A DNA stretch of 64,000 bases from contig JAUSKF010000004.1 in NCBI GenBank assembly GCA_030646995.1, forward strand, positions 84,404 to 148,403, in the 5' to 3' direction. Shown in pieces: positions 1,825-60,478 of the stretch. The position numbers were made by a program, and so were the translations under genes. The notes beneath the pieces are model-generated. The model saw only the letters and a list, made by a program, of their open reading frames with translations, ran no database searches and was not told the DNA's origin. Source of the DNA: a bacterium. GTDB lineage: Bacteria; Patescibacteriota; Minisyncoccia; UBA6257; WO2-44-18. Numbering within the stretch: position 1 is the stretch's first letter; every line of letters begins with the position of its first letter.

Positions 1825-2394
1825 CTAAACCAAATTTGAGGGAGGGGCCAAATGCTCACCAAATTTATCGTGCGGTAAGTCTTTAAACAATCCACCCGAG
1901 CCACGGGAACGTTTTATTCCGCGGCCTAGTACTTTTAAGATTGCCTCTGCTCCGCCTGGCCATTCTTCAAACTTCACTCCCTTCTGCGCAAACATTTGCA
2001 TTGTTGCTTCACGAGCTTTTGCGTTGGAATAGGTGCCGGCAGTAACCACCCTCGTAATTCCCTTTTGCATTAATACCTTCGAACAGTCCACGCAGGGCGT
2101 GCCCACTATGTAAGCGGTTGCTCCGCGTAAATCTTCCCGCACGGTATTTAAAACTGCGTTCACCTCACCATGCAAAGTGCGCACGCAATGGTTATTCTCC
2201 AAAAGATGCCCCGCTTCGTCGCAAGTCTCCAATCCCGACACGGACCCATTATATCCCGTGCCGACTACGTGCTTATCTTTATTTACCAAAACACAGGCGG
2301 TGCGTAGCCGATCGCAAGAGCCGCGATTGGAAAGCCACCAAGCCTGCACCAAGAAAGTTTCGTCCCAATTGGGTTTATGGCTCAAAGAATCCAT
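1825..2394 (-). CDS. dCMP (deoxycytidylate) deaminase, zinc-dependent CDA fold
   Basis: SWDETFL N-terminus; HGEVNAV and PCVDCSKV motifs (H-x-E ... PC-x-x-C zinc ligands). Confidence 0.8.
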   Translation of the reverse strand: MDSLSHKPNWDETFLVQAWWLSNRGSCDRLRTACVLVNKDKHVVGTGYNGSVSGLETCDEAGHLLENNHCVRTLHGEVNAVLNTVREDLRGATAYIVGTPCVDCSKVLMQKGITRVVTAGTYSNAKAREATMQMFAQKGVKFEEWPGGAEAILKVLGRGIKRSRGSGGLFKDLPHDKFGEHLAPPSNLV

Positions 2395-2552
2395 TACTTC
2401 CTATACTACCAAACCATTCACTCTTTTAAAACTTTTTGGCGCAGGGCAGCTGCCTCTAAGGAACATGCCGGAGACGATTTTGATTGGTTTGTTTGTTAAT
2501 ACAAACGAAAAATCGTCGAGGGAGAAGAAAAACAGCCCGCAGGAGACTGTGG

Positions 2553-2813
2553 GCCCCTATTTCCACATATTCCATCTAATTTGGAAGCTAAAAAATGAGG
2601 CAAGTTCGCGAAGTGAGCCACAGCTTTACAAGCGTAAAGCTAGGCGAACGAACAAAGAAATTGGCCATTTTTTAGCTTCCCGAAGGGCGGGTTAATTTTG
2701 AATAGCTTCTTTGTTACTCGGATTAGACATAGAGTCTATGTCTGCATCCTCGTGGTCGCGAATCTATTCAAAATTAACTCCGCCAAATTGATGCGATATG
2801 TGGAATTAGGGGC
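2553..2813. mobile_element. MITE-like non-autonomous element, copy 1 (~261 bp, 18 bp terminal inverted repeats)
   Basis: Terminal inverted repeats gcccctatttccacatat (2553-2570) / atatgtggaattaggggc (2796-2813). Internal palindrome gacatagagtctatgtc (2726-2742). Homologous to the element at 20237-20504. Confidence 0.5.
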
Positions 2814-2857
2814 CAATTCTGTTTCCGAGGAGGCAGTTGACCGATAAGCCAGAAAGT

Positions 2858-3289
2858 TTATTTCTCTATTACCTCGATGCCCATATTCTTAGCAGTACCG
2901 GCGATAATTTTCATTGCCGCCTCCACATCATAAGCATTCAAGTCAATCATTTTGCGCTCGGCAATCGCCCGCAAGTCAGCTTTGGTAACTTTACCAACTT
3001 TGGTTTTCAGCGGATCACCAGAGCCTTTTTCAATGCCGGCAGCTTTCTTCAACAAAGCGGAAGCCGGAGGAGTCTTCAATTTGAAATCAAAGCTACGATC
3101 TTCATAAATCGTAATTTCCGCCGGGACTACGTCGCCAATCATTTCCTTTGTGGCGTCGTTGAACTTCTTGCAGAAGTCCTGAATGTTTACGCCGTGCTGA
3201 CCTAAAGCCGGGCCGATCGGCGGCGCTGGGTTGGCCTTACCGGCCTCAATCTGTAACTTTAATACTGTTTTAACTGGTTTTCCTGCCAT
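2858..3289 (-). CDS. rplK: 50S ribosomal protein L11
   Basis: [36 protein letters not shown]... canonical L11. Confidence 0.95.
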
Positions 3290-3312: not shown

Positions 3313-3867
3313 TTATAACTTTTGAACCTGCAAGGAATCAAGCTCTACCACGGTGTCGCGTCCGAAAATTGCCACCAGCACCTTAACTTTGCCCTTTTCC
3401 TCATCAACCTCCGCCACCTTAGCGTCGTAGTCCTTGAAAGGACCATCGGTGATTTTGACAGACTCACCCACCTGCAACTCTACTTTGAACTTTACTTCCT
3501 CCTCTCCGCCGCTGATTCGCTTCAACAAAGATTCAATCTCGTCTTTAGAAAGAGGGGTCGGCTTGGTACTGTCCGGACCCACGAAACCGGTAACACGTGG
3601 CGTGTTGCGCACGACATACCAAGTGTCTTCGGTGAGAATCATTTCCACCAGAACGTAACCGGGATAAATTTTTTCCTCCACGGCGCGACGCTTGCCGTTC
3701 TTAATCTTAATCATCTTCTCTTTCGGAACGATAATGTTAAAAATCTTGTCTCCCATAGCCAAAGACTCCACGCGTTGCGTTAAGTAGCGCGCTACGGCAT
3801 CTTCGTAGCCCGAATAAGTGTGTACGGCAAACCACTCCCTTTCTTTTTTAGTTTCTACCTTATCCAT
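3313..3867 (-). CDS. nusG: transcription termination/antitermination factor NusG
   Basis: WFAVHTYSGYE N-terminal NGN domain; C-terminal KOW (VGESVKITDGPFKDYDAKV). Confidence 0.9.
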   Translation of the reverse strand: MDKVETKKEREWFAVHTYSGYEDAVARYLTQRVESLAMGDKIFNIIVPKEKMIKIKNGKRRAVEEKIYPGYVLVEMILTEDTWYVVRNTPRVTGFVGPDSTKPTPLSKDEIESLLKRISGGEEEVKFKVELQVGESVKITDGPFKDYDAKVAEVDEEKGKVKVLVAIFGRDTVVELDSLQVQKL

Positions 3868-3875: not shown

Positions 3876-4058
3876 TTAAATAATTTGGCTAAGCAGATAA
3901 GCGAACGCGGTGTCCAAAACTCCCAAAAACATTGCTATGGCAACCGAAAAAACCACTACGATCATCGTTAGCCGCATTGTTTCTGAAAAAGTGGGCCAAT
4001 TAACCCTTGTGAACTCCTGTCTGGCCTCCTGCCAAAAAGCTGTAACCTTACTAAACAT
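3876..4058 (-). CDS. secE: preprotein translocase subunit SecE
   Basis: 60 aa, single TM (MIVVVFSVAIAMFLGVLD) after a conserved basic N-terminus (EFTRVNWPT); lies directly upstream of nusG as in the canonical secE-nusG-rplK cluster. Confidence 0.8.
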   Translation of the reverse strand: MFSKVTAFWQEARQEFTRVNWPTFSETMRLTMIVVVFSVAIAMFLGVLDTAFAYLLSQII

Positions 4059-4536: not shown

Positions 4537-4591
4537 ATTAAAAAGCGCATCGCGCTACATACTTGGCCAACTACCACCTAATAATTTAATC

Positions 4592-4747
4592 GAGGCAGAC
4601 ATTTCTTCCCCGAAACCCGAGCGAGCTTAATCGGCTTTGGAGGTTTTTGTATAATATATCTTTAACAAAAACCCGATTAGCGCGAGCGCCAAGCGGAGTT
4701 CGCCGCAGGAGCGAATGAAGCGGGTTGAGGGAAGAGATGTCTGCCTC
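4592..4747. other. hairpin-closed ~155 nt element in gyrB 3' region (candidate structured RNA)
   Basis: 18 nt near-perfect inverted repeat arms gaggcagacatttcttcc (4592-4609) and ggaagagatgtctgcctc (4730-4747), with 17/18 complementarity. Confidence 0.25.
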
Positions 4748-4748
4748 G

Positions 4749-6749
4749 TTAAATATCCAAATTCTTTACGTACTTAGCCCGGCTCTGAATAAATTGCTTA
4801 CGCGGCTCAACTTCTTCGCCTAAAAGAATATCAAACAGACGGTCCGCTTCTTTGGCGTCGTCAATCACCACCTTCAATAAAGTACGATTAGCGGGATTCA
4901 TCGTGGTTTCCCAAAGCTGTTCCGGGTTCATTTCTCCAAGACCCTTGTACCGCTGGACGTTAAGACCCTCTTTCGGCAACTTATCCATCTCGGCCTGCTT
5001 ATAAATATATTTCACCTCTTTCCCCTTCTGCACGTGATACAACGGCGGCTGGGCGATATACAAATACCCGCCTTCAATAATCGGCAAGAAATGACGGTAG
5101 AAAAGCGTGAGCAGAAGCGTGCGGATGTGAGAGCCGTCCACGTCGGCATCAGTCATCAGTACGATTTTGTGATAGCGAAGCTTTGTGAGATCGAAAGATT
5201 CAGCAATGGCGGTACCGAGAGCAATCACCAAAGATTTAATTTCTTTGTTGAGCAACATTTTATCAATACGGGATTTTTCCACGTTCAAAATCTTGCCCTT
5301 CAACGGCAAGATAGCTTGCGTGCGGCGGTCGCGGCCTTGCTTGGCGCTTCCACCGGCAGAGTCTCCCTCAACGATAAACATTTCTGAATCTTCCGGATTC
5401 CTCGAGCTGCAATCAGCCAATTTACCCGGCAGGGTCAGTCCTTCGAGGACACCCTTACGCAAAACGGTATCCTTAGCAGCTTTCGCGGCCTTACGCGCCT
5501 TGGCGGCGAGCATACAACGCTCAATTACACGGCGGGCGTCCGCGCTATAGCGCTCCAAGAAATCCTTCAAAGCTTCACCGGTCACAATTTCCACAGCCGT
5601 GCGAGCTTCGGTGTTGCCTAAGCGAGCCTTGGTCTGACCTTCAAATTGAGGCTCGCGAAGCTTCACAGAAACAATCGCAATCAAACCTTCACGCACATCA
5701 TCACCGGTGAAATTCTCATCATCTTTGCGAATGTATTCTCCAGAGCGGGCGTAATCGTTGAGCGAGCGGGTAAGAGCCGAGCGGAAACCGGTGAGATGCA
5801 TACCACCGTCGGGAGTGTAGATATTGTTGGCGAAGCTCAACTCCTGAATTTCCATCTCACTGTTGTAAATGAAAGCCACCTCCACCTCAACGTTCTCGGA
5901 ATCTTTTTGGATATAAAAAGGAGTTTCCTGCAACGGTTTTTCTCCTTTACTCAAATATTTAATGAAGGAAAGAAGGCCACCGTCGAAATAAAAGGAGTGG
6001 AACTGCTCATCTTTTTCATTCCGCAAATCCACCACTTCCAAACGGATGCCCTTGGTCAAGAAGGCCTGCTGGCGAAGATGGTCAAGAATACGCTTTCTAT
6101 CAAATGGATTATCTTTTCCTGTGGCGGCCGGAAAGATTAACGGGTCGGGCTCAAAAGTAACTTTGGTACCGGTGGTTTTAGAACTGCCGATTTTTTTTAC
6201 TTTATATTGCGGCTTGCCCTGCTTATATTCCTGCGTGTAGACTCCTCCATCGCGGTTTACTTCCACCTGCATCCAGCTGGATAACGCGCACACTACGGAA
6301 ACACCCACACCATGCAAACCGCCTGACACTTTATAAGACTCGCCGCCGAATTTACCACCAGCGTGCAAGGTGGTCATCACAGTTTCCAATGTGGATTTTT
6401 TCGTTTGCGGGTGAACTTCTACCGGAATACCGCGGCCGTCGTCCACTACCGAGATACGGTTTTGAGGCAACAATTCGATTCGGATATTTTTCGCATATCC
6501 GGCCATGGCTTCATCAAAAGAGTTATCCACGACTTCCCAGATCAAATGATGCAAACCGGCGAGATCAGTCGTGCCGATATACATACCCGGGCGCTTCCTG
6601 ACAGGGTCCAAACCCTCCAAAACGTAGATGTCTTTCGCGGTATAAGAGCCGGGCTTATTTGAGTCCTTAAGGGAAAGCTTCTCGTCCTTCACTTCGGTTT
6701 TTCGGATCTCACTTTTTGGTTCTTTTTCCTCTTTTTTCGCCATAAGCAA
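4749..6749 (-). CDS. gyrB: DNA gyrase subunit B
   Basis: GLHHLIWEVVDNSFDEAMAG ATPase motifs; GLHGVGVSVV; C-terminal Toprim (EGDSAGGSAKQGRDR). Confidence 0.95.
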   Translation of the reverse strand: MLMAKKEEKEPKSEIRKTEVKDEKLSLKDSNKPGSYTAKDIYVLEGLDPVRKRPGMYIGTTDLAGLHHLIWEVVDNSFDEAMAGYAKNIRIELLPQNRISVVDDGRGIPVEVHPQTKKSTLETVMTTLHAGGKFGGESYKVSGGLHGVGVSVVCALSSWMQVEVNRDGGVYTQEYKQGKPQYKVKKIGSSKTTGTKVTFEPDPLIFPAATGKDNPFDRKRILDHLRQQAFLTKGIRLEVVDLRNEKDEQFHSFYFDGGLLSFIKYLSKGEKPLQETPFYIQKDSENVEVEVAFIYNSEMEIQELSFANNIYTPDGGMHLTGFRSALTRSLNDYARSGEYIRKDDENFTGDDVREGLIAIVSVKLREPQFEGQTKARLGNTEARTAVEIVTGEALKDFLERYSADARRVIERCMLAAKARKAAKAAKDTVLRKGVLEGLTLPGKLADCSSRNPEDSEMFIVEGDSAGGSAKQGRDRRTQAILPLKGKILNVEKSRIDKMLLNKEIKSLVIALGTAIAESFDLTKLRYHKIVLMTDADVDGSHIRTLLLTLFYRHFLPIIEGGYLYIAQPPLYHVQKGKEVKYIYKQAEMDKLPKEGLNVQRYKGLGEMNPEQLWETTMNPANRTLLKVVIDDAKEADRLFDILLGEEVEPRKQFIQSRAKYVKNLDI

Positions 6750-15172: not shown

Positions 15173-15470
15173 TGCTTAAATAAAGTACCTACATTTTAAT
15201 TCACTGGAAAAAATTTGTCTAGGAAAGTTTCTAGCTTTTGGTACCCTCAGGAAATTGCTTCTCAGAGATGGTGTAGTCCCGCTCCAGCGGCGGGACTCAC
15301 CTCGTGTCTCGCTCCGCCACTTCCGATTACGGAAGAACCGAGCTGGCGAAGCTCCGACACGCTCCTCGAACCAATATGCCTTCGACCAAAAGCTCGCAAC
15401 AGCAACCACTACCCCGCGGGGTAGTAGGAAGAAAAAAACCGCCACATCTTTCGACGTAGCGGCTTCACGA

Positions 15471-20135: not shown

Positions 20136-20197
20136 TTTCTATCCTTTCAAAGTAACCAAGGATTATTTTATAACAAACCCCGTAAAATGGCTACGCC

Positions 20198-20236
20198 ATC
20201 ACGGGGCAAGAAAAAAGCCCCGTAAAGACGGGGTCA
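20198..20236 (-). terminator. rho-independent terminator of the 20509-21345 gene, displaced by element insertion
   Basis: Read on the minus strand: CCCCGTCTTTACGGGG followed by cttttttcttg. It lies just beyond the left terminal inverted repeat of the MITE-like element. Confidence 0.5.
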
Positions 20237-20504
20237 GCCCCCTATTCCCACATAAGCTCTAGCAGCGTTGTGAGGTATAAATTCTTTATTTCGAGGAAGC
20301 GAATTTTGAGGCATAGACTCTATGCCCAAGATGAGCTGACATAGAAATAAAGAATTTTAACCACAACCCTCTGGGATGCGGGATTTTATTATTTATTACT
20401 TCGTTTCTCGGACTTGGAGTAGACTTCTACATCTGCGTCCTCAAAGCCTCGTACTAAATAAAAAATCCCCGCATCGCTGCGGAGAATATGTGGGAATAGG
20501 GGGC
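20237..20504. mobile_element. MITE-like non-autonomous element, copy 2 (~268 bp, 18 bp terminal inverted repeats)
   Basis: Terminal inverted repeats gccccctattcccacata (20237-20254) / tatgtgggaatagggggc (20487-20504). Internal palindrome ggcatagactctatgcc (20310-20326). Region 20400-20450 aligns with 2715-2760 of copy 1. Confidence 0.5.
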
Positions 20505-20508: not shown

Positions 20509-21345
20509 CTACTTCTTCTCGTAAAACTCATACTGATACAAGACGTGGCCGCGTTTCAACGCCAGCGCCCTCTTCTCTATTTTACTGTCCATCCATTCAT
20601 CTTCGGTAATCCGTCCGTCCTTGTCGTAGGTGTACTCATGAGCCAGCTTAGCCACCACCTCGCCACCATAGTAATCGTAAACGGCGCGCTCCTCCAGGTC
20701 TCCGGCAAGGTTGTAGCTGGATTCTGCGGACAGATAGCCCATGTGGTTGACGGTAGTCGCGCGACGCAACTTACCGTCCTTATCGTATTCGAAATCAGTA
20801 GTATTCCGAATCTTTCCCTCAATCACTTCCTCGCTCTTCTTTAGTACTCCGTCATCGCTGTAATGATTGACGATCTTGGTTTTAGAGCCGCGGCATTGAG
20901 CGCATTCCCATTCTTTCAGGAGCCCCTTCTTGTCGAAGCGTGAGATGTAAAGCAAATCTCCCGTGGCAAGAATGATTCGCTGCTCAATCTCCAAATTGCC
21001 GTCAACGTCTCTCTTGTATGTCCAACGCTCTAAAGTCTTTCCTTTGTCGTCAATCTCCAATCGTTCCTTAATCTGGCCATCATCTCCATAGATATGTTTA
21101 TAGATAAGTTTTTCGGTCTTGCCGGTGGAATCCGAGAGCTCCTTATTTACCAAATCACCCCTATCATCAAAGGTTTCGGTAACCTTGCGGTCAAAATACT
21201 GCACGGTCGGATTCTTATCATCTTCATCCCAATATTCGGTGATCCGTGCTTTCATTCTCGACGGGGGCTTTTCGAAATCAGCAACTTCAGCAAAAAGACT
21301 TCCTCCGTAAAAACAGGCGAACACGATAACGGACAATTTGTGCAC
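20509..21345 (-). CDS. secreted YD-repeat-like protein, paralogue 4 (GTG start)
   Basis: AGGAGG RBS; signal peptide; repeats YTYDKDGRI, FEYDKDGKL, YKRDVDGNL. Confidence 0.65.
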   Translation of the reverse strand: MHKLSVIVFACFYGGSLFAEVADFEKPPSRMKARITEYWDEDDKNPTVQYFDRKVTETFDDRGDLVNKELSDSTGKTEKLIYKHIYGDDGQIKERLEIDDKGKTLERWTYKRDVDGNLEIEQRIILATGDLLYISRFDKKGLLKEWECAQCRGSKTKIVNHYSDDGVLKKSEEVIEGKIRNTTDFEYDKDGKLRRATTVNHMGYLSAESSYNLAGDLEERAVYDYYGGEVVAKLAHEYTYDKDGRITEDEWMDSKIEKRALALKRGHVLYQYEFYEKK

Positions 21346-22406: not shown

Positions 22407-22489
22407 TGGTTTAGTGTTTCGTATAAAGTATACGGTATTAAGTATTGGGGGAGAATTTATACTTAATACATCACACTGAATACTAAATA
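22407..22489. repeat. AT-rich palindromic intergenic repeat (GTATTAAGTAT family), copy a
   Basis: gtattaagtat ... atacttaatac 11 bp inverted repeat plus the actgaatactaaatacta tail shared with copies at 47395-47500 and 49850-49945. Confidence 0.4.
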
Positions 22490-23044
22490 CTATTCGGAGA
22501 TCTCCTCAATCTTAGCAGAAAGAGAAACTTCAATCTCGCTGTTTGTTTTATCTACGGACTTTTGCGCCTTTTCGCGCGATTTGAATTTCTGATCTTCGGT
22601 AATTAATTTTTCCTTGAAAGCGGACTCAATCTTTTTATTTACATCATCACGCCCGGCGCGGACTTTTATCTTGGCCTCCTCGGTCAGACGCTTGGCCAAT
22701 TTAGTCAATTCTTCACGGCGTTCATCCGTCAGGGCCGGCAAATTAATCCGGATAAGATTACCGTCGGAATTAGCGGTTAATCCCATCCCGGAAGTTTCAA
22801 TAGCCTTAACCACCGCGCTCAAGGATTCTTTATCCCAGACGTTGATATCAATTTCACGGGGAGGAAGAATGCTGATTGCGCCAAGTTGCTGAACAGTAAA
22901 ATCCTGATCCATATACCGGACTTTCAGGTTATCCACCAGTTTTGGGCTGGGCCGGTTGGTACGGACTCCGGAAAGTTCATTTTTCAGATAATCCACGATC
23001 GCTCTTAAATTTTTCTCGAAATCTTTTATTAGTTGTTCTGTCAT
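22490..23044 (-). CDS. frr: ribosome recycling factor
   Basis: Canonical RRF length and motifs (VRTNRPSPKLVDNLKV, LPPREIDI). Confidence 0.95.
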   Translation of the reverse strand: MTEQLIKDFEKNLRAIVDYLKNELSGVRTNRPSPKLVDNLKVRYMDQDFTVQQLGAISILPPREIDINVWDKESLSAVVKAIETSGMGLTANSDGNLIRINLPALTDERREELTKLAKRLTEEAKIKVRAGRDDVNKKIESAFKEKLITEDQKFKSREKAQKSVDKTNSEIEVSLSAKIEEISE

Positions 23045-27986: not shown

Positions 27987-28328
27987 TTATTTTTCTATAG
28001 TTAAAAGATTCAAACGTTTTTGTTTCAAAAAATTCTGCGGCAACATACGCTTCACGGCCAACATCAAAACTTTCTCCGGAGATTTTGCAAAAGCCTCCTG
28101 GTAAACCTGCTCTTTCAAGTGACCCATATAGCCAGTGTGGCGATAGTAAATCTTTTGAGTCATTTTCCGACCGGTGACTACAATCTTCGAAGCGTTCTTA
28201 ACAACCACCTTATCTTTTCCGGGGTTGCGTGGCTGATAATCAGGATGCATTTTGCCCTGCAAAATCTGGGCAATCTGTGATGCCAAGCGTCCTAATTTCT
28301 GATCTTTTGCGTCAATTACGTATTGCAT
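27987..28328 (-). CDS. rplM: 50S ribosomal protein L13
   Basis: YYRHTGYMGHLK motif; canonical length. Confidence 0.95.
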   Translation of the reverse strand: MQYVIDAKDQKLGRLASQIAQILQGKMHPDYQPRNPGKDKVVVKNASKIVVTGRKMTQKIYYRHTGYMGHLKEQVYQEAFAKSPEKVLMLAVKRMLPQNFLKQKRLNLLTIEK

Positions 28329-28354
28329 TGTAGGATATTCTTATTGTTTAAACG

Positions 28355-28368
28355 TTTAAATATTTAAA
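28355..28368. promoter_or_regulatory. palindromic TTTAAATATTTAAA intergenic motif (1 of 5) upstream of rplM
   Basis: Exact 14 nt self-complementary motif, ~27 nt upstream of the start codon, in a 55 nt spacer. Confidence 0.4.
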
Positions 28369-28383
28369 GATATGATATATGAG

Positions 28384-28731
28384 TTACTTCACAAACTCAA
28401 TCACCGCCATCGGGGCGGCATCTCTCATGCGGGCCTTGGCCAACTTAGTGATGCGCAAGTAACCGCCGGCGCGATTCTGATAACGAGGCGCGACGTCAAA
28501 ATAAAGCTTCTTGGCAGATTTCTTAGGCAAAGCGGCAAGCAAGCGTCGAAGTGATGCTAATTGCTGCTTTTTGGCGATGGTAACCATTTTTTCCACCATC
28601 GGGCGAATTGCTTTGGCGCGCGCAACCGTAGTCGAAATCTTTTCTTTCATAATCAAATTATTAGCCAATCCTTGCAGGAAAGACTTTCGACGACCCATCG
28701 TACGATTAAATTTTCGCGCGTGCTTTGCCAT
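28384..28731 (-). CDS. rplQ: 50S ribosomal protein L17
   Basis: MAKHARKFNRTMGRRKS... canonical L17. Confidence 0.95.
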   Translation of the reverse strand: MAKHARKFNRTMGRRKSFLQGLANNLIMKEKISTTVARAKAIRPMVEKMVTIAKKQQLASLRRLLAALPKKSAKKLYFDVAPRYQNRAGGYLRITKLAKARMRDAAPMAVIEFVK

Positions 28732-28757
28732 TGTAGTATATTTCTATTATTTAAATG

Positions 28758-28771
28758 TTTAAATATTTAAA
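28758..28771. promoter_or_regulatory. palindromic TTTAAATATTTAAA intergenic motif (2 of 5) upstream of rplQ
   Basis: Exact 14 nt motif in the 45 nt rpoA-rplQ spacer. Confidence 0.4.
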
Positions 28772-28776
28772 CATCT

Positions 28777-29559
28777 TTACTCTTCTTTCTTCTTTTTCTT
28801 AGAGGCCTTTTTCGCTTTCTTTTCCTCTCCTTCTTCTGCAGCAACCGCAGACGCCTCTACTTCTTTGACTTCCACACCGGAAATCTTAACAAAGTGATCC
28901 TGCAAAATATTACTGGACTTTCTCAAAGCGGAAGATGGGGTGATACTGCCGTCGGTTGCGATAATCAAGCGGAGACGGTTGTAGTCAGCGCGCTCCCCTA
29001 CCCGCATATTTTCTACCGAAAAATTTACCTGTACTACCGGAGAGAATAAAGCGTCGATAGCGATAACACCAATCGGCAACTTATCGCTCTTACGGGATTC
29101 AACCGGCAAATAACCCAAACCCTTCTCCACGGTGATTTCCATATCTAATTCAGCATCCTTGCTGGTCAAGGTAGCAATGTGAACGTCGGAGCTAATCAGG
29201 TCAACTTGAGAGTTGGTCTTGATGTCGGACGCAGTCACAACTTTTTCTCCCTTAATCTTTAAAATCAAAACCTGAGGCTCGTCGGTGTGAATTCTAAAGC
29301 GAACTTTTTTCAAATTTAAAGCTACTTCCACCATGTCCTCCTTCACTCCTTCAACGGTAGAAAATTCATGGCTGGCTCCTTTGATTTTTACTTGAGTAAT
29401 CGCGGCGCCCGGAAGAGAAGAAAGCAAAACACGACGCAAAGCATTGCCAAGGGTTAAACCATAGCCACTGTACAATCCCTCAATTTCAAAAACCCCCTCT
29501 TTATCGGTTTCCGAGACCTTTTTGATTCCAACCGTCTCACTTAAATATTGATATTCCAT
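28777..29559 (-). CDS. rpoA: DNA-directed RNA polymerase alpha subunit (N-terminal domain only; no alpha-CTD)
   Basis: Alpha-NTD motifs (GYGLTLGNALRRVLLSSL, DALFSPV); 260 aa ending in an acidic/lysine tail in place of the ~80 aa HhH C-terminal domain. Confidence 0.9.
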   Translation of the reverse strand: MEYQYLSETVGIKKVSETDKEGVFEIEGLYSGYGLTLGNALRRVLLSSLPGAAITQVKIKGASHEFSTVEGVKEDMVEVALNLKKVRFRIHTDEPQVLILKIKGEKVVTASDIKTNSQVDLISSDVHIATLTSKDAELDMEITVEKGLGYLPVESRKSDKLPIGVIAIDALFSPVVQVNFSVENMRVGERADYNRLRLIIATDGSITPSSALRKSSNILQDHFVKISGVEVKEVEASAVAAEEGEEKKAKKASKKKKKEE

Positions 29560-29586
29560 AAGTTTTTTATTCTTTATATTTTACCT

Positions 29587-30201
29587 CTATTTACTATAAA
29601 AGTCAACCACAAGGTTCACATCAAACGGGATGTCGAAATCCTTAGGAGCGGAAAGCATCTTTCCCTCTTGTTTGTCAGCATCGACAGCCAACCAAACCGG
29701 AGCTTCGTATTTCTTTAGTTTTTCTCCCAAATCTTTGAAAAGCGGGTGTTCTTTAGACTGCGGACGAATGGAAACAATGTCTCCGGCTCGAAGCTGAATT
29801 GAAGGAATCGTGGCTTTGCGTCCATTCAACATAATATGGCCATGACTAACTAACTGGCGGGCAACGGAACGGGAAGCAGCAAATCCAACGCGATAGACCA
29901 CGTTATCTAAACGGCTTTCCAACAAGCTGATAATCAACGGACCGGTGACGCCGGGGTTACTGGTAGCTCTTTTTACGATCAAACGCATCTGATTCTCACG
30001 AATACCATAGGTATAGCGGATTTTTTGTTTCTCTTTCAGTTGAGTTCCAAATTCAGAAAGCTGTTTGCTAAAAGATTTACCGTGAGCTCCCGGTTTATGC
30101 GGCCTGCGTGAAGTAACGCATTTTGGAGAATTACAACGCTCCGCTTTCAAAAAAAGCTTTGTGCCTAGCGAACGTTCTCTTTTTTCTCGTGTATCAAACA
30201 T
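29587..30201 (-). CDS. rpsD: 30S ribosomal protein S4
   Basis: S4 domain (VSHGHIMLNGRKATIPSIQLRAGDIV). Confidence 0.95.
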   Translation of the reverse strand: MFDTREKRERSLGTKLFLKAERCNSPKCVTSRRPHKPGAHGKSFSKQLSEFGTQLKEKQKIRYTYGIRENQMRLIVKRATSNPGVTGPLIISLLESRLDNVVYRVGFAASRSVARQLVSHGHIMLNGRKATIPSIQLRAGDIVSIRPQSKEHPLFKDLGEKLKKYEAPVWLAVDADKQEGKMLSAPKDFDIPFDVNLVVDFYSK

Positions 30202-30227
30202 GGATGTATATTTTTATAATTTAAAAA

Positions 30228-30241
30228 TTTAAATATTTAAA
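30228..30241. promoter_or_regulatory. palindromic TTTAAATATTTAAA intergenic motif (3 of 5) upstream of rpsD
   Basis: Exact 14 nt motif in the rpsK-rpsD spacer. Confidence 0.4.
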
Positions 30242-30243
30242 CA

Positions 30244-30696
30244 TTAAATGCGGCGGACTTTGGGTGGTCTTGGACCGTTATGCGGAATCGGGGTTACGTC
30301 TTTAATAGAAAGGATATTGAAGCCATGGTTCGCCAAAGTGCGGACCGCGGAATCCCGGCCTCCGCCTACTCCGCTGACTACCACGTGCACATTGACCGGA
30401 CCGGACTTTTTCAACTTCTCAGCAATCACGGCGATTATCTTCGAAGCGGCAAAAGGAGTGGCCTTTTTCGGACCATTGAAACCCAAAGATCCGGCAGTGC
30501 TCCAAGCGAGTATATTACCTTTATCATCCGATACCGAAACTAGGGTGTTGTTGTAGGAAGCTTTGACGAAAACTTTGCCGGTATCAAATTTTTTGGAAAC
30601 CGACTTCTCGCTCGCCTTTGCAACAGCGGCTTCAGTCTTCTGGCCCTCTTTGAGGACTTCTTCGGTGGTTTGTTTTGTTGGTACTTTTTTACCCAT
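30244..30696 (-). CDS. rpsK: 30S ribosomal protein S11
   Basis: GKVFVKASYNNTLVSVSDDKGNILAWSTAGSLGF canonical. Confidence 0.95.
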   Translation of the reverse strand: MGKKVPTKQTTEEVLKEGQKTEAAVAKASEKSVSKKFDTGKVFVKASYNNTLVSVSDDKGNILAWSTAGSLGFNGPKKATPFAASKIIAVIAEKLKKSGPVNVHVVVSGVGGGRDSAVRTLANHGFNILSIKDVTPIPHNGPRPPKVRRI

Positions 30697-30717
30697 GTTG
30701 GTTGTGTATTTTTAGTA

Positions 30718-30731
30718 TTTAAATATTTAAA
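30718..30731. promoter_or_regulatory. palindromic TTTAAATATTTAAA intergenic motif (4 of 5) upstream of rpsK
   Basis: Exact 14 nt motif followed by a partial second copy (cgtttaaatatt). Confidence 0.4.
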
Positions 30732-30741
30732 CGTTTAAATA

Positions 30742-31125
30742 TTATTTCAACTCGTTTTTACGTTTTCCACTGCCAGCGGTCTTACGAACATTGCCACGCA
30801 CAGTGCGGGAGTTAGTCTTCGTCCTTTGGCCACGGACCGGGAGCTTGCGGGAGTGACGCATACCCCGATATGACTGCAAATCTTTCAATAAATTAATGTT
30901 CTGCTTGATGATTTGACGCAACTCACCCTCAACTTTAAAATTTTTCTCTATATGCGCCTGAATCCGGTTTACTTCCTCAGGGGTAAGAGTCTTGGCACGC
31001 TTGCTCGGATCAATTTTTACCTTCTCTAAAGTCTGGATTGCCAGAGTCCGGCCGATGCCGAAAAGATAAGTCAGCGCTATATCAATACGCTTGTTGTCTG
31101 GAATATTTGATCCGGAGATTCTCAT
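30742..31125 (-). CDS. rpsM: 30S ribosomal protein S13
   Basis: MRISGSNIPDNKRIDIALTYLFGIGRT canonical. Confidence 0.95.
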   Translation of the reverse strand: MRISGSNIPDNKRIDIALTYLFGIGRTLAIQTLEKVKIDPSKRAKTLTPEEVNRIQAHIEKNFKVEGELRQIIKQNINLLKDLQSYRGMRHSRKLPVRGQRTKTNSRTVRGNVRKTAGSGKRKNELK

Positions 31126-31143
31126 TGAAGTATATTTTATTAT

Positions 31144-31157
31144 TTAAATATTTAAAG
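31144..31157. promoter_or_regulatory. palindromic TTTAAATATTTAAA intergenic motif (5 of 5) upstream of rpsM
   Basis: Exact 14 nt motif in the rpmJ-rpsM spacer. Confidence 0.4.
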
Positions 31158-31177
31158 ATTTAAACATGGCGCTTCAC

Positions 31178-37339: not shown

Positions 37340-37540
37340 TATTTGTCAAGGGCTCATGGCTTCCTACCCCAAGCTCCTCATAAGACCTTCGGCGGCCAAA
37401 CCGCGACTTATTTAAGCTATTTTTTCGGCCCTAAAATTGGGGTGCGCCAAAATAGCTAAACGCACGGGGCTACGCCTCGGAATCTTATTCGGAGCATTGG
37501 GGTAAAGCCTGATTCGCTTTGTTAAAACTGGAACCAAGAA
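37340..37540. repeat. GC-rich intergenic repeat, copy A (~200 bp)
   Basis: Aligns along its length with 46440-46690 and partially with 57790-57875. Shared blocks include gaccttcggcggcc, ggccctaaa, cgcacggggctacgcctcggaatc, ttcgcttt and aagggctc. Confidence 0.55.
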
Positions 37541-40272: not shown

Positions 40273-40311
40273 TAAAAACAAAAATCCCCTACCTTCTGCA
40301 GAAGGTAGGGG
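40273..40311 (-). terminator. strong rho-independent terminator (11 bp perfect stem)
   Basis: Read on the minus strand: CCCCTACCTTCtgcaGAAGGTAGGGG followed by atttttgttttt. Confidence 0.55.
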
Positions 40312-40411
40312 CCGGATGACGTGTTCGCGCTAGTTTAGCGGGCGGCATCGCTTGGGATCAATCATCGCTGTTAGTTGCCCGCAAGGATCGCGACGCGAAC
40401 ACGCTGATTCG

Positions 40412-41014: not shown

Positions 41015-41347
41015 AGCTTTCCTCCTTGTAAGGGACTGGCGAGATATTAGCATGTCAAACTGAATTCGTCAAACTATAAAAATCCCTGCCGGCAGGCAGG
41101 CCCTTCAATAAGAACAAAGCGAACGAGGTTACTTTTTGTTCTCGTAGCTCCTCAAAGCAGAGGCGAAGGCGTGTTGGTTCAAGGAACATCTCGGAGGCGG
41201 TTGGGCTTGGCTCGTTCGTTGTCCATATTTACGAACGAACAACCGCCGAGAGAGAAGAAAACCCCGCCGTTGGAGTGGGGTTATTCTGTGTCCGAGAATC
41301 AATACGCCAGAGCCCTTTGCGAGAGAATAAAAGTAGCCGAGTGAGCC

Positions 41348-45375: not shown

Positions 45376-46431
45376 CTAAAATGGCTTTATTTGCTTCAGC
45401 AAATCGGAAGCCGGATTAAACCTGAACTTCTTCACCGGTTCGAAGAAGTCACTACATTGCTCAAGCGCAAAGACAATCTCTTTCGCTTCTTCGCTAGTCA
45501 AACTTTCCTTCATTCCCTTCTCCAAAACTTCGATAGTGTATTTGGGGGAAAGAAGCTCGGGATCTCGGCCGGGCACTCTCTTGGCCCGCTCTTCGAGCAT
45601 CCGCCTCGGCAACTCTTTCGCAAGGAACCAAAGCGCATCGCGAAGTTTTGCATAAGTCTCAGAGCTTGTGTCAGCGTTGCATTCTTTCACGGCTCGGAGA
45701 ACCGACCGGAAAGAAGGCGGCCTCTTAACTGATGCCGCGCGGCAGGCCAACACTCCGCCGATGCCTCCGCCATCCGCCCTTTCTGGCGGAGGCGGATCCG
45801 CTTCAAGCACTTCGCAAGATGGCAGGAGAAGGATTGCCTCGGAATCAATCTCCTTCTCTTCGGGCTCGGCCGATGCCAGCCTGACATCGGAAACCAACAG
45901 CGAACAAGGCAGATTCAAATTTTTCAAAGATTGCGGGATGTGGTCGTAGGAAATAACATGTACCAATTTTCCGGCGACAATCAGCGCTTGCACCAGCTTG
46001 AAGAACGGCTCACCGCCATCCCCTGTGCAAAGCACTACTCCCTGAACGCGAGCATCGTTAGCCATCAGCAAACCGATTTCGCAAAGGGCCAAATCCGCAG
46101 AATCCTTCCCTTGTGGAACCAGAATCACGGAAGTGAAGTCGCGATCAATGAGGCACTGCATCATCCGAGAATTATCTTTGCGCATCGCCACCGGCTTCTT
46201 CCGAATGTCAGCGCTCTCTCCATGCACAACAGACTTCGGGGCAGACAGCGCAGCATCTGCGCGAATCAAAGGTCCAAATTGACCGGCAATTCGATCAGCT
46301 TGATCAATCGCTAGATTCAAAACCTTTACATCCGTCAGGCTGCAACCATCATCGTGCCTTGCCTGAATAGTCAAATTTTCAACGTCCATCAAGATGACAC
46401 TGCCCTTGAGCGTACTCGTCTCCGCATGCAT
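45376..46431 (-). CDS. NYN-domain (LabA-like, PIN-like nuclease) protein with C-terminal extension, GC-rich
   Basis: VILMDVENL...DSADLALCEIGLLMANDARVQGVVLCTGDGGEPFF matches the NYN D...EN...D...GDGDF pattern. Start trimmed to the ATG preceded by GGAGAGG; the longer ORF runs into the repeat. Confidence 0.55.
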   Translation of the reverse strand: MHAETSTLKGSVILMDVENLTIQARHDDGCSLTDVKVLNLAIDQADRIAGQFGPLIRADAALSAPKSVVHGESADIRKKPVAMRKDNSRMMQCLIDRDFTSVILVPQGKDSADLALCEIGLLMANDARVQGVVLCTGDGGEPFFKLVQALIVAGKLVHVISYDHIPQSLKNLNLPCSLLVSDVRLASAEPEEKEIDSEAILLLPSCEVLEADPPPPERADGGGIGGVLACRAASVKRPPSFRSVLRAVKECNADTSSETYAKLRDALWFLAKELPRRMLEERAKRVPGRDPELLSPKYTIEVLEKGMKESLTSEEAKEIVFALEQCSDFFEPVKKFRFNPASDLLKQIKPF

Positions 46432-46439
46432 GGCTTTTC

Positions 46440-46690
46440 CTCTCCAAGACAGCGGTGATATCTTACTAATTTTTTGCCAAAAAGTAAAGGGCTCGCTCGG
46501 TCTTTGCATAACTTCTCACTCGACCTTCGGCGGCCATGCCGCGACTCACTTAACGAGATTTTTCCGGCCCTAAAGGGACACTTCGTTCCCGAAAAAATCT
46601 CTATTCGCACGGGGCTACGCCTCGGAATCTCGTTCGAAATTATGCAAAGGCCTCATTCGCTTTATAAAAAATCTCCGCAAAAATGCGGAG
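46440..46690. repeat. GC-rich intergenic repeat, copy B (~250 bp) carrying the promoter of the NYN gene
   Basis: Homologous to copy A. On the minus strand TTTACT-17-TAAGAT promoter at the left end, aligned with TTGACA-17-TAGACT in copy A. Confidence 0.55.
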
Positions 46691-47339: not shown

Positions 47340-47394
47340 TTTTCAGCCTCCTCTTTGATTCAAAAAACTAGGAAGAGATTAGCACGTAGACTTG

Positions 47395-47500
47395 GGTTAG
47401 TAAACCCAAATCGGTATTTAGTATAAGGTATCCGGTATTAAGTATGCCCTCGCTCAAATACGGAATACTTCATACTTGATACTAAATACTAAAAATCCGG
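47395..47500. repeat. AT-rich palindromic intergenic repeat (GTATTAAGTAT family), copy b
   Basis: ccggtattaagtatg ... atacttcatacttgatactaaatactaaaaa. Confidence 0.4.
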
Positions 47501-47520
47501 CATTGCCGGATTTTGTTTTT
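47490..47520. terminator. rho-independent terminator downstream of tRNA-Pro (bidirectional hairpin)
   Basis: aaaaa-ATCCGGC-att-GCCGGAT-tttgttttt. Confidence 0.5.
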
Positions 47521-47521
47521 G

Positions 47522-47592
47522 TCGGGGCGCCGGGAATCGAACCCGGCCTATACGCACCCCATGCGTACGTACTGCCGATATACTACGCCCCG
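47522..47592 (-). tRNA. tRNA-Pro (anticodon GGG), CCA not encoded
   Basis: Hand-folded cloverleaf on the minus strand: acceptor CGGGGCG/CGCCCCG, D-arm GTAT-ATCGGCA-GTAC, anticodon stem TACGC/GCGTA with loop ATGGGGT, T-arm CCGGG-TTCGATT-CCCGG, discriminator A. Confidence 0.85.
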
Positions 47593-47644: not shown

Positions 47645-47645
47645 T

Positions 47646-57180: not shown

Positions 57181-57789
57181 TAGGTGGTTATTATTTTTTA
57201 GGGTGACGTTTATATTAATGGCGACCCTGTCTAACCATTTTGGTTATTAAATTTTATTAAAATTGCGTCTTTCTTCCGCATGACTCTTCTACGGGGCTTG
57301 CCCCGCACCTTATTGCGTCATAGGCAGGCAAACTTCACGTCATAGAAAAGGTGCGGGGTCAAATTCAGAAAAACGCCAAAACCCAAACCACGCTTTTTAC
57401 CGATTTGAGCGTAGCTTATGGATTTCTTTAATTAGTTAATAGTGTATACCCGTTGACAAAAATTGTCAAGGGTGCGTTGGGGTGTGCCCGGTGCTACAAC
57501 AAATATGACCTAAGCACAAACCTCTATTTTCCACACAAACTTGCCGAAAGCTACTCTAATCTAGCCTGTTGGTTGTAGCACCGGGTGTGGATAACTCCCC
57601 TTGACCGCACTTGGCACTTTCGGGCGATCACTTCTCGGAAACGGCATAATTTGCTTCCAGCGAGCAAATTTACCTCTCCCTCGGCGATTTGTCCCTAATG
57701 AGCCAATCCAAATCGCCTGCGGCATGTTCCTCCAAGTAATCCGCCCTACGGCCAAGAGCAGTCTGCGTTGGTGCTGGTTGGGGAAATAA

Positions 57790-57907: not shown

Positions 57908-60283
57908 TTAAAATCCTGAAGGATAAGGCAAAGACCTTATATAGTCTTCCATAAATTGCCAATCAGGATTATCGCTCTTACCAATGGGAAGTTTAATTTT
58001 TTCGAAAGGCAATCTCATAAGCCTTACTTGTCTGCCATAGGCATACTTATACTTCAATTTACTTAGTATAGTTACCAAAAATAAAGAGCTGAATTTACTA
58101 AGCTCAAAGTCAATCGGAATAAGCGTGTGCACATTGTCGTCGCTGAAATATTTATAGTCATGATAAAAAACATTAAAAAACATATCGACGGTTATTTTAT
58201 TTTGAAATATCTTCTTCTTGCCTTGGAACTCCTCCAAAGAAATGTATTCGGAAACACCGTTGTTATTTTCTCCAGCTGTTATTAGTGGGATCTCGCCATC
58301 TATACGATCGGGCTTTGTCAATCTCTCCCCTTTCTCAAAGCGAAATAGATCACCCAAGCCAAACACTCTCCAACTGCGAGTATCTATTAATTGCTCCTTC
58401 TTAGTAGAATCTTTATTTTTTAACAAGAACTCAGCCATTTCGCTTTTCCCGTTTTTAAATAAAAACGCAGCTACATTCACTGTATTTTGAATAAATTCTA
58501 ATCCACTAATTCTTGAGAAATCAGTCTCGAGATACGCCTCAGCGCACCACTCATCATCTTTGGTGATCTTTTTAAGAACACAAAAACCAGGAATTTCTTT
58601 TTTCCCGTAAAAAGCCGCCAACCATGCTTCTCTTATATCTCGCCATTTGTCGGTAGCGACCCTGCCATCCCTTTTATCTTTTCTAAAACCATCATTTTTC
58701 CAATATCCGAACCAGCTCTCGTGATGCTCGTCGCTATCATGTGGGGTATGAGCCGTAAAAACCATAATACAAGTAACGGTTCCGATGGGGTAAAATAGGT
58801 CATCCGGCATACTCATCACCGCTTCTAATCTATGCTCGCTGAGAAGTTTTTCACGAAGTGGATGCTTGGTATCGATCGCTAGAGACATTGGCACAATTAC
58901 TATCCCCGTCGCGTTCTTACTCAACCCATCAAGCATGCGAATGACGAAATCCCACTCATGCAAATTGTCACCTTTTTGTGAATATGGTGGGTTCATAAAA
59001 CCCGCGTTCGCTTTATTTTTAATTTTATTGAAAAGAACGTCATCGAAACATGAACCTTGATAAAGATTAGTCTTCCCATCACCTCGCAAGATCATGTTCG
59101 AAACAGCTAGAGCAAACATTTGGGGTTCTTGCTCGATGCCAATAAGGGAGTTGGATAGTATTCTTCTTTTCTCTTCCGCCGAAACTTTTCCAGTCATTTT
59201 TTTCATCGCCGATATCAGAAAACCGCCAGTTCCGGCGCATATATCAAGAACGACTGAATTCTTGTCTAGTTTTGCCAACTCTGAGAATAAGTCGGTGATA
59301 TGTTTTGGGGTTAGAACAATACCAAGACCCTTACCATCACCTCCGGTATAACGAATAAATTCACCATAAAAATTGCCTATGATGTCAAAATCATAGTGAT
59401 CTTTGGTGAAGGGCTGAACGTGCATTTGTAAATCTCTGATTATGTGTAGTAAAGGGGATTCGTTTTTCTTGGCGTCAATCTTTTGTAACTCAGGATGGTG
59501 TGCTATAAAACTAAACGCGTTTACAACTGCTTTCTTCTTAGCTTCATGCGTGTCTCCAAGCTCCGCTTTATCTATAATCTTTTTTAAAGAATTAAATGTC
59601 TCGTTGGCCAATTCTTCTCCTTCGTATTTCTTGTATGCAACCTCAAAACCCTTATCCATGAGAGCTAATAAAACACCGCTAACTAGCAATGGCTTTTGGG
59701 CTTCAGTAATCTTCGCATAATCGCGCATGTAATCATGCAACTCCCGGGAAAAACGCATTAGATCAGAATGCCGGGACTTTGCTAACGCAGGATCAAATTT
59801 CGCACGCTCAATATACCTATTCCAAGGCAGTATTTTCTCGATTTTTCTATTATTTTCATCTAATAAATCTGTATAGGTAGAAGAGTTTTTAGGATATAAA
59901 TATGTACTTACTTTGTAATCACTTTCATCTTCGCCGCTAATACCAATGGCAATAACATTAAATTCCCGGGCCAGGTGACTACCATACAAAAGAGCGCCAT
60001 CAACTGCATAATCCTTGTACTGATCCCTGCTTTTTGATTCGTGATATTTTAAATCCGCTTTGCATTCGATGATTAGTAAAAAATCATTGTCGTCTTTTTT
60101 CCTAACAATAAACTCCGGCTTTCCCGATCCTAAACCAGACTTACTGGCATTTTTTAGTAATTTTTGGATTGTGGGATTGTCGCTTTTTTGTTCTTCAACA
60201 ACAAATTCTGCATTATCAAAAATACCCGCCTTTGTCAGAAGTTTACGAGATAGGTTTTCGGTTTTTTTCTCGTTCTTAGTCAT
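57908..60283 (-). CDS. single-polypeptide Type IIG/IIL restriction-modification enzyme (MmeI-like: N-terminal PD-(D/E)xK nuclease, gamma-class N6-adenine methyltransferase, C-terminal HsdS-like target-recognition domain)
   Basis: DFLLIIECK nuclease motif; methyltransferase motif I VLDICAGTGGFL before motif IV NPPY; C-terminal region with HsdS-type TRD pattern. AT-rich (~33% GC). Start trimmed to the ATG after a GGGGG RBS. Confidence 0.75.
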   Translation of the reverse strand: MTKNEKKTENLSRKLLTKAGIFDNAEFVVEEQKSDNPTIQKLLKNASKSGLGSGKPEFIVRKKDDNDFLLIIECKADLKYHESKSRDQYKDYAVDGALLYGSHLAREFNVIAIGISGEDESDYKVSTYLYPKNSSTYTDLLDENNRKIEKILPWNRYIERAKFDPALAKSRHSDLMRFSRELHDYMRDYAKITEAQKPLLVSGVLLALMDKGFEVAYKKYEGEELANETFNSLKKIIDKAELGDTHEAKKKAVVNAFSFIAHHPELQKIDAKKNESPLLHIIRDLQMHVQPFTKDHYDFDIIGNFYGEFIRYTGGDGKGLGIVLTPKHITDLFSELAKLDKNSVVLDICAGTGGFLISAMKKMTGKVSAEEKRRILSNSLIGIEQEPQMFALAVSNMILRGDGKTNLYQGSCFDDVLFNKIKNKANAGFMNPPYSQKGDNLHEWDFVIRMLDGLSKNATGIVIVPMSLAIDTKHPLREKLLSEHRLEAVMSMPDDLFYPIGTVTCIMVFTAHTPHDSDEHHESWFGYWKNDGFRKDKRDGRVATDKWRDIREAWLAAFYGKKEIPGFCVLKKITKDDEWCAEAYLETDFSRISGLEFIQNTVNVAAFLFKNGKSEMAEFLLKNKDSTKKEQLIDTRSWRVFGLGDLFRFEKGERLTKPDRIDGEIPLITAGENNNGVSEYISLEEFQGKKKIFQNKITVDMFFNVFYHDYKYFSDDNVHTLIPIDFELSKFSSLFLVTILSKLKYKYAYGRQVRLMRLPFEKIKLPIGKSDNPDWQFMEDYIRSLPYPSGF

Positions 60284-60478
60284 GGAAAACCCCCAAAGCA
60301 GTAAAAGCAAAATTATCTCCTATTGTTTGATTATATCATCTTCGCTTATATCGAAAACGGAAAAGAGTAAATAATACATATAGCAAAGCTATGCCGAGAA
60401 AGCTCCTCAGGGCGTGGATCCAATCCTCGCCCTAGCCGCCTTCTTCCATTTTACTCTCTAGGTTAGTAAATTCCTTTC

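Follow-up and report, generated by a model that had tools for sequence, protein, structure and literature searches.

A MITE-like palindromic element inserted into another mobile structured repeat downstream of rplK

The window analyzed here (the whole stretch of DNA, 64,000 nucleotides) carries a ribosomal protein locus in which rplK, the gene for L11, is followed by a 463-nt gap and not by rplA. The first-pass annotation had assigned 261 bp of this gap to a MITE-like element, placed it where rplA would be expected, and described the canonical secE-nusG-rplK-rplA-rplJ-rplL-rpoBC cluster as broken exactly there. The locus therefore raises two questions: what kind of sequence follows rplK, and is it connected with the missing rplA? 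We find that a MITE-like, nonautonomous palindromic insertion element with terminal inverted repeats (the TIR element) describes the sequence best, and that it lies within another mobile structured repeat (domain A) in the 3' region of rplK.

The rplK locus and the missing rplA

Nearly all genes of the window lie on the minus strand, where the order is secE (4058..3876), nusG (3867..3313), rplK (3289..2858), the 463-nt gap (2857..2395), and a deaminase gene (2394..1825). The main features of the locus are as follows.

2858..3289, minus strand: rplK (L11), an open reading frame (ORF), with Pfam Ribosomal_L11 on the identical protein
1825..2394, minus strand: dCMP/cytidine deaminase gene, the conserved downstream neighbor of rplK in the relatives L002, L003, and L005
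2552..2814, plus strand (family orientation "E" is the plus strand, antisense to rplK): TIR element copy 1, 263 nt, noncoding; recognized from terminal-repeat statistics, folds, the family profile, and its absence from the orthologous gap of relatives
2552..2570: left terminal inverted repeat, the 5' strand of helix P1
2796..2814: right terminal inverted repeat, the 3' strand of helix P1; 19 bp with one T/T mismatch
~2583..2680: arm A, a long hairpin (GGAAGCTAAAAAATG ... CATTTTTTAGCTTCC, tip GCTTTACAAGCGTAAAGC), from folds
~2686..2784: arm B, a long hairpin that holds an 8-bp repeat and a 17-nt palindrome, from sequence and folds

Relatives were ranked by NusG identity (L002, 94%; L003, 89%; L004, 95%; L005, 91%). 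L002, L003, and L005 have the same gene order as the window (nusG-rplK-dCMP deaminase-170-amino-acid ORF-guanylate kinase-gatB), but the gap between rplK and the deaminase gene, 463 nt in the window, is 86, 103, and 67 nt in these genomes, respectively. Within this gap, all three have a plain terminator (aaaaccgcccc...ggggcggttttt) and a short promoter-like stretch but no TIR element. The empty site that the first-pass annotation had proposed to look for in related genomes is thus present in three of them, and the 463-nt gap is a lineage-specific gain. In L004, rplK is likewise not followed by rplA, and one extra ORF of 143 amino acids lies between rplK and the deaminase gene.

Because the element-free L002 to L005 also have no rplA after rplK, the missing rplA predates the insertion, and copy 1 did not displace an L1 gene, since relatives without the element have no L1 gene there either. 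As judged from these genomes, rplA follows rplK nowhere in the clade examined, with or without the element. Published work describes a Parcubacteria subgroup that lacks L1 (bioRxiv 10.1101/2022.01.07.475337, with reference to Brown et al. 2015). The earlier observation that rplA, rplJ, and rplL are missing held in that the ORF map of the window has none of them beside rplK or rpoB; the notion of an element sitting in the place of rplA and breaking the cluster did not.

Upstream of rpoB, a 727-nt gap (57181-57907) without rplJ or rplL contains a promoter-like site (TTGACA-17-TACACT), a long local stem (57488-57501 with 57572-57585), a copy of domain A, and a partial copy of a further repeat, domain B. 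Beyond it, at 57908..60310, lies a gene that joins an N6-methylase to a type I specificity domain, and AAA/AbiEii-like ATPase and DUF2130 genes come next, an arrangement that looks like a defense island. In L039, a close relative whose NusG is 95% identical, nusG is directly followed by a 23S_rRNA_IVP-domain gene (1832-2212), in the slot that rplK takes in other relatives; this contig stops ~100 nt past that gene, after a 21-codon partial ORF. L038 and L039 were inspected as closer relatives that might carry domain A without the insertion, and both contigs stop short of the region 3' of rplK.

Copy 1 begins 44 nt past the rplK stop codon, in the 3' untranslated region. The core of its terminal repeat (GCCCCTATTTCCACATAT at 2553-2570 and ATATGTGGAATTAGGGGC at 2796-2813, with one T/T mismatch), its 17-nt palindrome (GACATAGAGTCTATGTC at 2726-2742), and its 8-bp inner repeat (TTGAATAG at 2698-2705 and CTATTCAA at 2764-2771) all lie where the first-pass annotation had placed them, except that one extra G:C pair (2552/2814) lengthens the terminal repeat to 19 bp. 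The 8-bp repeat is only the inner portion of the longer arm B helix, and arm A was absent from the earlier description. Folding of copy 1 gives ~100 Watson-Crick pairs in a terminal helix, a second helix, and the two long arms. On its own, copy 1 folds with -123 kcal/mol as RNA (z, -13.0) and -74 kcal/mol as DNA (z, -12.6), and in both cases 0 of 200 shuffles were as good. The terminal 18-mer (≤3 mismatches) occurs 4 times in the 64-kb window versus 0.09 times expected, and 2 of these occurrences mark where a second copy begins and ends. Over the whole 463-nt gap, the window is 100% identical to an independent Logan assembly of the same organism (L001, SRR13727527).

Copy 1 contains no transposase ORF, as had been noted, and indeed no credible ORF at all; the overlapping frames are of 172 amino acids (antisense to the deaminase gene) and 49 amino acids. 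No promoter-like site was found inside or beside the TIR element. Rfam 15, ribosomal protein leaders included, gave no relevant match at the gathering score in the window and four loci. In relaxed searches on four subregions (E up to 5 to 10), nothing matched over 2300-2950 at E up to 10, again including the ribosomal leader families, and only subthreshold, chance-level matches were found over the second copy.

Further copies, empty sites, and landing positions

The second copy in the window is the following.

20237..20504, minus strand (orientation E is the minus strand, sense to the host gene): TIR element copy 2, 268 nt, from terminal-repeat matches and folds

Copy 2 shares the architecture of copy 1: besides the terminal helix there are a second helix of ~10 bp, a pair of arms of 35 to 40 bp, and a small CCC-N4-GGG hairpin. 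Both copies have the same arm B tip (CATAGAGTCTATG). Copy 1 on the plus strand is collinear with copy 2 on the minus strand, so that the two stand in opposite orientations to their upstream host genes. Another candidate for copy 2, at 57520-57602 (cctctattttccacaca ... gtgtggataactcccc), was rejected; its 15-mer match is at chance level, and it has no BLAST similarity.

In 185,579 species-representative genomes, a two-ended terminal-repeat pattern matched one related Parcubacteria metagenome-assembled genome (MAG) only, at two places (L006 5233-5500 and L007 6315-6581), and nhmmer found a third, divergent copy in the same MAG (L007b, at L007 3035-3304). A metagenome scan for the terminal repeat plus the second helix gave one match only, a 158-nt one-armed deletion derivative (L008). 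When viral contigs were scanned for the 16-nt terminal core, the 22 matches were all single and unpaired, in line with chance. The element measures ~263 to 268 nt, with a terminal helix of 19 to 21 bp and, except in L007b, the termini GCCCCCTAWTYCCACATA, and copy 1 matches the nhmmer family profile with an E value of 1e-54. Identity is 52% between copies 1 and 2, 75% between copy 2 and the L007 copy, and 97.8% between the L006 and L007 copies. Copy number is low, with 2 copies per 64-kb window and very few matches in public data. The first-pass annotation had expected copies beyond the first, and these exist (a second in the window, three in the related MAG, and one deletion derivative). The sequence is thus neither limited to two copies nor, at rplK, conserved intergenic DNA in relatives, whose gap is without it.

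The host genes are unrelated to each other (L11, lipoprotein-like paralogues, and nicotinate phosphoribosyltransferase [NAPRTase]). Copy 1 is antisense to its host gene, and the other four independent insertions are sense. L007 is syntenic with 15 to 22 kb of the window, and its copy at 6315-6581 occupies the site orthologous to that of copy 2. Despite its 97.8% identity to this copy, the L006 copy lies at an unrelated locus, directly after the NAPRTase gene. That site (L006/L031) is empty in three sister genomes (NAPRTase 94%, 88%, and 85% identical), where it consists of a TAA stop codon, 2 to 10 nt, and the same terminator. The filled site in L006 reads tacTA[GCCCCC...GGGGGC]AGtcccgcg, and the empty site reads tatTAAtgaaaaatccc. 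The near-identity of the L006 and L007 copies at unrelated loci and the empty site in three sisters together argue for recent movement, and the 98% identity of the two copies could partly reflect gene conversion.

At this youngest copy, comparison with the empty site revealed no target-site duplication of 2 nt or more (TA on the left, AG on the right). Matching flanking dinucleotides were found in only 2 of the 5 copies, L008 (TA/TA) and L007 (TT/TT). The family therefore shares with MITEs a length below 500 bp, the lack of coding sequence, terminal inverted repeats, dispersed copies, and filled and empty sites between relatives, but not a target-site duplication at young copies. The original reading as a MITE-like insertion survives in these respects, whereas neither the duplication nor a parent insertion sequence (IS) was found.

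The insertions land in a narrow space. Three independent ones end 1 to 3 nt before the stem of a terminator: copy 1 (stem at 2550..2532), copy 2 (20233..20218), and the L006 copy (tcccgcg...cgcggg). Copy 2 starts 4 nt past the stop codon of the gene at 21345..20509 and ends 3 nt before its hairpin. In L006, the first G of the element completes the TAG stop codon, and the terminator follows 2 nt past the element; in L008, too, the element end supplies the TAG stop codon of the host gene. The original spacer between stop codon and terminator was no longer than ~10 nt for copy 2 and L006. Either the TIR element targets the stop-terminator spacer or only such insertions survive in a compact genome. 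The sense copies (copy 2, L006, and L007) have a terminator-like hairpin with a U-run ~20 nt inside the element (20485..20466 in copy 2). In L007b, the gene that starts at 3030, downstream of the element, has its ribosome-binding site (GAGGAGG) in one strand of the terminal helix, and the fold would sequester this site.

We looked for an enzyme that could move the element. Among 10 unannotated ORFs of the window there were no transposase or recombinase families; the ORFs matched NYN, AAA/AbiEii-like, DUF2130, and methylase plus type I specificity domains, among others. The precomputed Pfam lists of ~145 kb of related loci contained no such family either, and the pattern scans (genomes, metagenome, and viral contigs) gave no paired terminal repeats at IS-like spacing. 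A parent IS with matching terminal repeats was accordingly found in none of these three places (the window, the ~145 kb of related loci, and the pattern scans). No RAYT (Y1 transposase) gene was seen within the 64-kb window and the 8- to 21-kb loci.

Conservation of the fold and nesting in domain A

The fold of the TIR element is more conserved than its sequence. RNAalifold on five family members gave 93 consensus pairs, of which 51 had changed on both sides. Cells at these positions were paired in 86% of cases, compared with 40 to 50% when the 3' partners were slid, and 0 of 500 shuffles reached the observed values, although the set comprises five sequences, two of them near-identical, and the shuffle count is not to be read as a probability. 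Copy 1 aligns poorly to the family consensus, though its own fold is near perfect. In L007b, the termini differ in sequence (CCTCCTCTTTCTCTGTAAA), yet the terminal helix forms all the same, and such swapped termini are not expected for the site of a sequence-specific transposase. Between copy 2 and the L007 copy at the orthologous site, 19.7% of paired and 36.6% of unpaired positions are substituted; 8 doubly changed pairs are kept and 3 are broken, while the flanking intergenic DNA is unalignable. The copy at the orthologous site thus looks to be under constraint in two species, a pattern that would fit a host function as well as a selfish element.

With respect to strand, each copy has ~100 Watson-Crick pairs and 0 to 5 G-U pairs on either strand, and A-C mismatches are no more frequent than G-U pairs. 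Stability does not consistently favor one strand, and G-U versus A-C counts and energies give no clear strand preference. This near-pure Watson-Crick pairing fits DNA-level palindromy, or the use of both strands, better than it fits a single-stranded RNA.

Copy 1 is flanked on both sides by domain A, a second dispersed structured repeat of ~150 nt. Its copies are listed below.

2815..2852, minus strand: copy c1, 5' part (box CCTCGGAAACAGAAT), severed from the rest by the TIR element; from nhmmer and paralogue alignment
2422..2551, minus strand: copy c1, 3' part, with a terminator-like hairpin H1 (2550..2532) and T-run, hairpin H2 (CGACGATTTT ... AAAATCGTC), and then CCGGCATGTTCC
41153..41316, minus strand: copy c2, uninterrupted, the next feature past rpoD; as a paralogue, it serves as an "empty site" for copy 1
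57612..57765, plus strand: copy c3, uninterrupted, with the rpoB promoter on one side and the end of the methylase gene on the other
15239..15399, plus strand: degenerate copy
Relatives: L002 185-342 and 1185-1343; L031 1142-1291; L034 3411-3546

In the relatives, the copies thus belong to L002 (two), L031/L006, and L034/L035. With nhmmer, positions 2-42 of domain A align to 2851..2811 and positions 40-164 to 2550..2424. Because the two halves of the profile flank copy 1, and because c2, c3, and the L002, L031, and L034 copies are unbroken at this point, copy 1 splits domain A. The split lies between the conserved CAGAAT box and the hairpin with T-run at 2550..2522, which was flagged by the terminator scan, so that the insertion point of copy 1 is 1 to 2 nt upstream of the terminator-like hairpin of domain A.

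Domain A folds into an outer helix, a GGAA(N)CA/TGTTCC helix, a terminator-like arm, and a covarying hairpin (GRCGRTT...AAYCGYC), with 46 consensus pairs, 30 of them changed on both sides. In the predicted fold, the arm of A-tract, hairpin, and U-tract looks like a bidirectional terminator. The reverse strand folds better by 3.6 to 18 kcal/mol in 8 of 8 copies, and domain A occurs in either orientation to its neighboring genes. It is also insertion polymorphic, being present in L034 and absent at the same junction in L031 and L032, and Rfam contains no match to it. After rplK, rpoD, and (in L002) gyrB, it stands in place of the native terminator, and the predicted terminator-like hairpin appears now to end the rplK transcript. 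A small plus-strand ORF in domain A (MPETILIG...) was rejected as a gene; its start is not conserved (ATC in c2), its substitutions are not biased to the third position, and the stems covary. Separately, a stretch of 755 nt at 39657-40411 has no convincing gene and shows weak partial domain A matches (40139-40211) and chance-level Rfam matches only.

Most intergenic gaps of the window longer than ~250 nt are filled by strongly folding, mutually nested repeats, as judged by rough z-scores from 8 mononucleotide shuffles, and at least two of the repeat families of the window show gain or loss between sister genomes.

Several other repeats were seen along the way. Domain B is a long imperfect hairpin of ~150 to 190 nt at 37345-37527, 46484-46670, and, in part, 57788-57863 (plus strand). 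Its full copies are 70% identical and each lies just upstream of a minus-strand sigma-70-like promoter; the copy at 46484-46670 adjoins an NYN-domain gene (45376..46509), and the motif GGCTACGCC of domain B is also present in terminator hairpins at 20175-20210 and 42602-42637. A third type of repeat, at 4590-4751 (minus strand), is ~165 nt long with terminal inverted repeats of ~33 bp (TAACGAGGCAGAC...GTCTGCCTCGATTAA). It starts at the stop codon of gyrB and precedes the conserved terminator of that gene; its interior is found again in L034 (~1040-1170). In L002, this stop-terminator slot of gyrB is taken by domain A. At 28326-31167, where genes of ribosomal protein size are separated by short gaps, an AT-rich motif of ~46 nt (TATTRTTTAAAYGTTTAAATATTTAAA) recurs five times, in one gap after another, and may be a shared promoter or terminator signal. 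AT-rich repeats of GTAT/AGTAT units occur at 22414-22492, 47414-47491, and 49848-49927; one set flanks tRNA-Pro (47521-47592), and the gap at 47340-47645 folds strongly (minus strand, z of about -11, a rough estimate). Finally, an intergenic block of ~170 nt (gggcgaccaggtgggtcgccc ... ggattggcaggggcgcgcaagtaaagttatcccc) in L031 (5625-5800), L032 (4225-4400), L034 (5490-5655), and L036 (11345-11485) is highly conserved among genomes with 85 to 100% identical NAPRTase and may be an undescribed noncoding RNA; it had no Rfam match at the gathering score in L031 and L034.

Nature of the element and its place in the genome

The sequence at 2552-2814 is probably a copy of a small, nonautonomous, noncoding palindromic insertion element family of one Parcubacteria clade that is moved in trans. 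Because the TIR element encodes nothing, an enzyme acting in trans would have to move it. A structure-specific enzyme that recognizes hairpin or cruciform DNA (of the Y1/HUH type, or a site-specific recombinase) would be favored over a classical DDE cut-and-paste transposase because there is no target duplication and because the fold is kept where the terminal sequence has been replaced. New copies would settle, or be retained, in the short interval that separates a stop codon from an intrinsic terminator. The element would then be transcribed within the 3' end of the host mRNA, and ~100 bp of duplex RNA there would presumably influence how stable the 3' end is, how RNase III processes it, or how transcription terminates.

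A rather unlikely alternative to such an insertion element is that the sequence serves the host as a structured 3'-end module (a stabilizer, terminator, or guide for RNase III) that is rarely copied and is not a selfish transposon. It would explain why an orthologous copy was kept at 75% identity in two species amid unalignable flanks, why paired positions evolve at about half the rate of unpaired ones with more compensatory than broken pairs, and why so many consensus pairs covary (51 of 93, with 86% of cells paired against 40 to 50% in the slid controls); every insertion with a downstream terminator sits between the stop codon and that terminator, and the sense copies bear their own terminator-like hairpin and U-run. 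However, the orientation of copy 1 is opposite to that of the others, so no single RNA strand is used, and the rarity of G-U pairs, equal to that of A-C mismatches, points to Watson-Crick DNA palindromy over selection at the RNA level. The host genes are, moreover, unrelated, close relatives manage without the element, and the covariation comes from five sequences of which two are near-identical. An independent noncoding RNA gene, small or large, that happens to follow rplK would also have a very stable, conserved multihelix fold with compensatory changes and no ORF. We consider this improbable given the lack of a promoter-like site at the element and of any Rfam match at E up to 10, the equally good folding of both strands, the occurrence of copies in both orientations, and the location of copy 1 inside another repeat, between stop codon and terminator, at a site that lacks it in close relatives.

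More improbable still is conserved intergenic or regulatory DNA marking the loss of rplA (with its L1-binding leader) and tied to the break in the secE-to-rpoBC cluster. The window has no rplA after rplK and no rplJ or rplL before rpoB, as this would predict, but the element-free L002, L003, and L005 show the same rplK-deaminase adjacency, and L004 has no rplA either. The absence of L1 is a known trait of a Parcubacteria subgroup, no ribosomal leader was found with Rfam, and the other copies of the TIR element adjoin unrelated genes. That the palindrome arose by chance or by misassembly is hardly credible in light of the 0 of 200 shuffles, the terminal-repeat statistics, the identical independent assembly, and the homologues in other genomes.

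The insertion element family favored here belongs to a known general kind of element. Among such elements, Correia elements duplicate TA on insertion, and a REPIN consists simply of two short REP units, spans ~100 nt or less, carries a conserved short motif, and is present in tens to hundreds of copies. Unlike REPINs, the TIR element is 263 nt long, has four helices and few copies, and is built of a terminal helix and two independent long arms, with no REP doublet. Bacterial MITEs such as the Correia elements of Neisseria and the ERIC elements of enterobacteria are, like it, shorter than 500 bp, noncoding, bounded by terminal inverted repeats, intergenic, and dispersed, and they give stable stem-loop transcripts (PMC10969869). 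They are often found at the 3' ends of genes and cotranscribed with them, the same placement as that of the TIR element; RNase III cuts Correia elements at the terminal repeats, ERIC elements alter mRNA decay, and direct repeats are expected in young MITEs (PMC10969869). In contrast to Correia and ERIC elements, the TIR element has no target-site duplication, no related IS that we could find, and a very low copy number; it folds into a four-way junction with two 35- to 40-bp arms and not into a simple hairpin, and in one family member the terminal helix persists although its sequence differs. The missing duplication and parent IS, the conservation of fold over sequence, and the constrained orthologous copy are departures from a textbook MITE.

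Two other systems share further traits. In the pneumococcus, BOX, RUP, and SPRITE are unrelated small structured repeats that use the same intergenic slots and insert into one another, and SPRITE resembles a rho-independent terminator (PMC3049150, summarized in PMC10969869). The TIR element is similar in being nested in the terminator-armed domain A, with at least two more structured repeat types in the window, and differs in having no sequence relationship to these repeats, in its host phylum (CPR), and in that domain A is a multihelix repeat of ~150 nt that extends beyond a terminator. REPINs, which depend on RAYT (Y1/IS200-like), are portrayed as nonautonomous, extragenic, vertically inherited hairpins that make no target duplication and persist for long at orthologous sites (PMC3116915; bioRxiv 10.1101/2021.07.10.451892). 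The absence of a target duplication and the persistence of copy 2 and its L007 counterpart at the same site, 75% identical, are points of likeness. The behavior of the TIR element is closest to that of nested BOX/RUP/SPRITE repeats, 3'-end Correia and ERIC elements, and duplication-free, persistent REPINs. We found no published description of the TIR element family and, in a narrow literature search, no papers describing MITEs in Patescibacteria.

A broader proposal, which we hold only tentatively and with some doubt, is that the clade carries a mobile set defined by structure (the four-way-junction TIR element, domain A, and at least two hairpin repeats) that is moved by an enzyme acting on folded DNA without target duplication, homes to the stop-terminator gap, and is kept by selection as exchangeable 3'-end modules. 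On this view, domain A would stand in for the native terminator of rplK, rpoD, and (in L002) gyrB, and the TIR element would add ~100 bp of duplex to the 3' untranslated region. If true, these would be CPR-specific mobile terminators and 3' untranslated region structures, unlike ordinary decaying MITEs.

For annotation, the analysis removes a false lead, in that the missing rplA is a lineage trait and not transposon damage. The genomes of CPR/Patescibacteria are small and tightly packed; if such elements supply terminators and 3'-end structure to genes such as rplK, rpoD, and gyrB, they would be part of how transcription is organized in reduced genomes, and they would also serve as strain-level markers.
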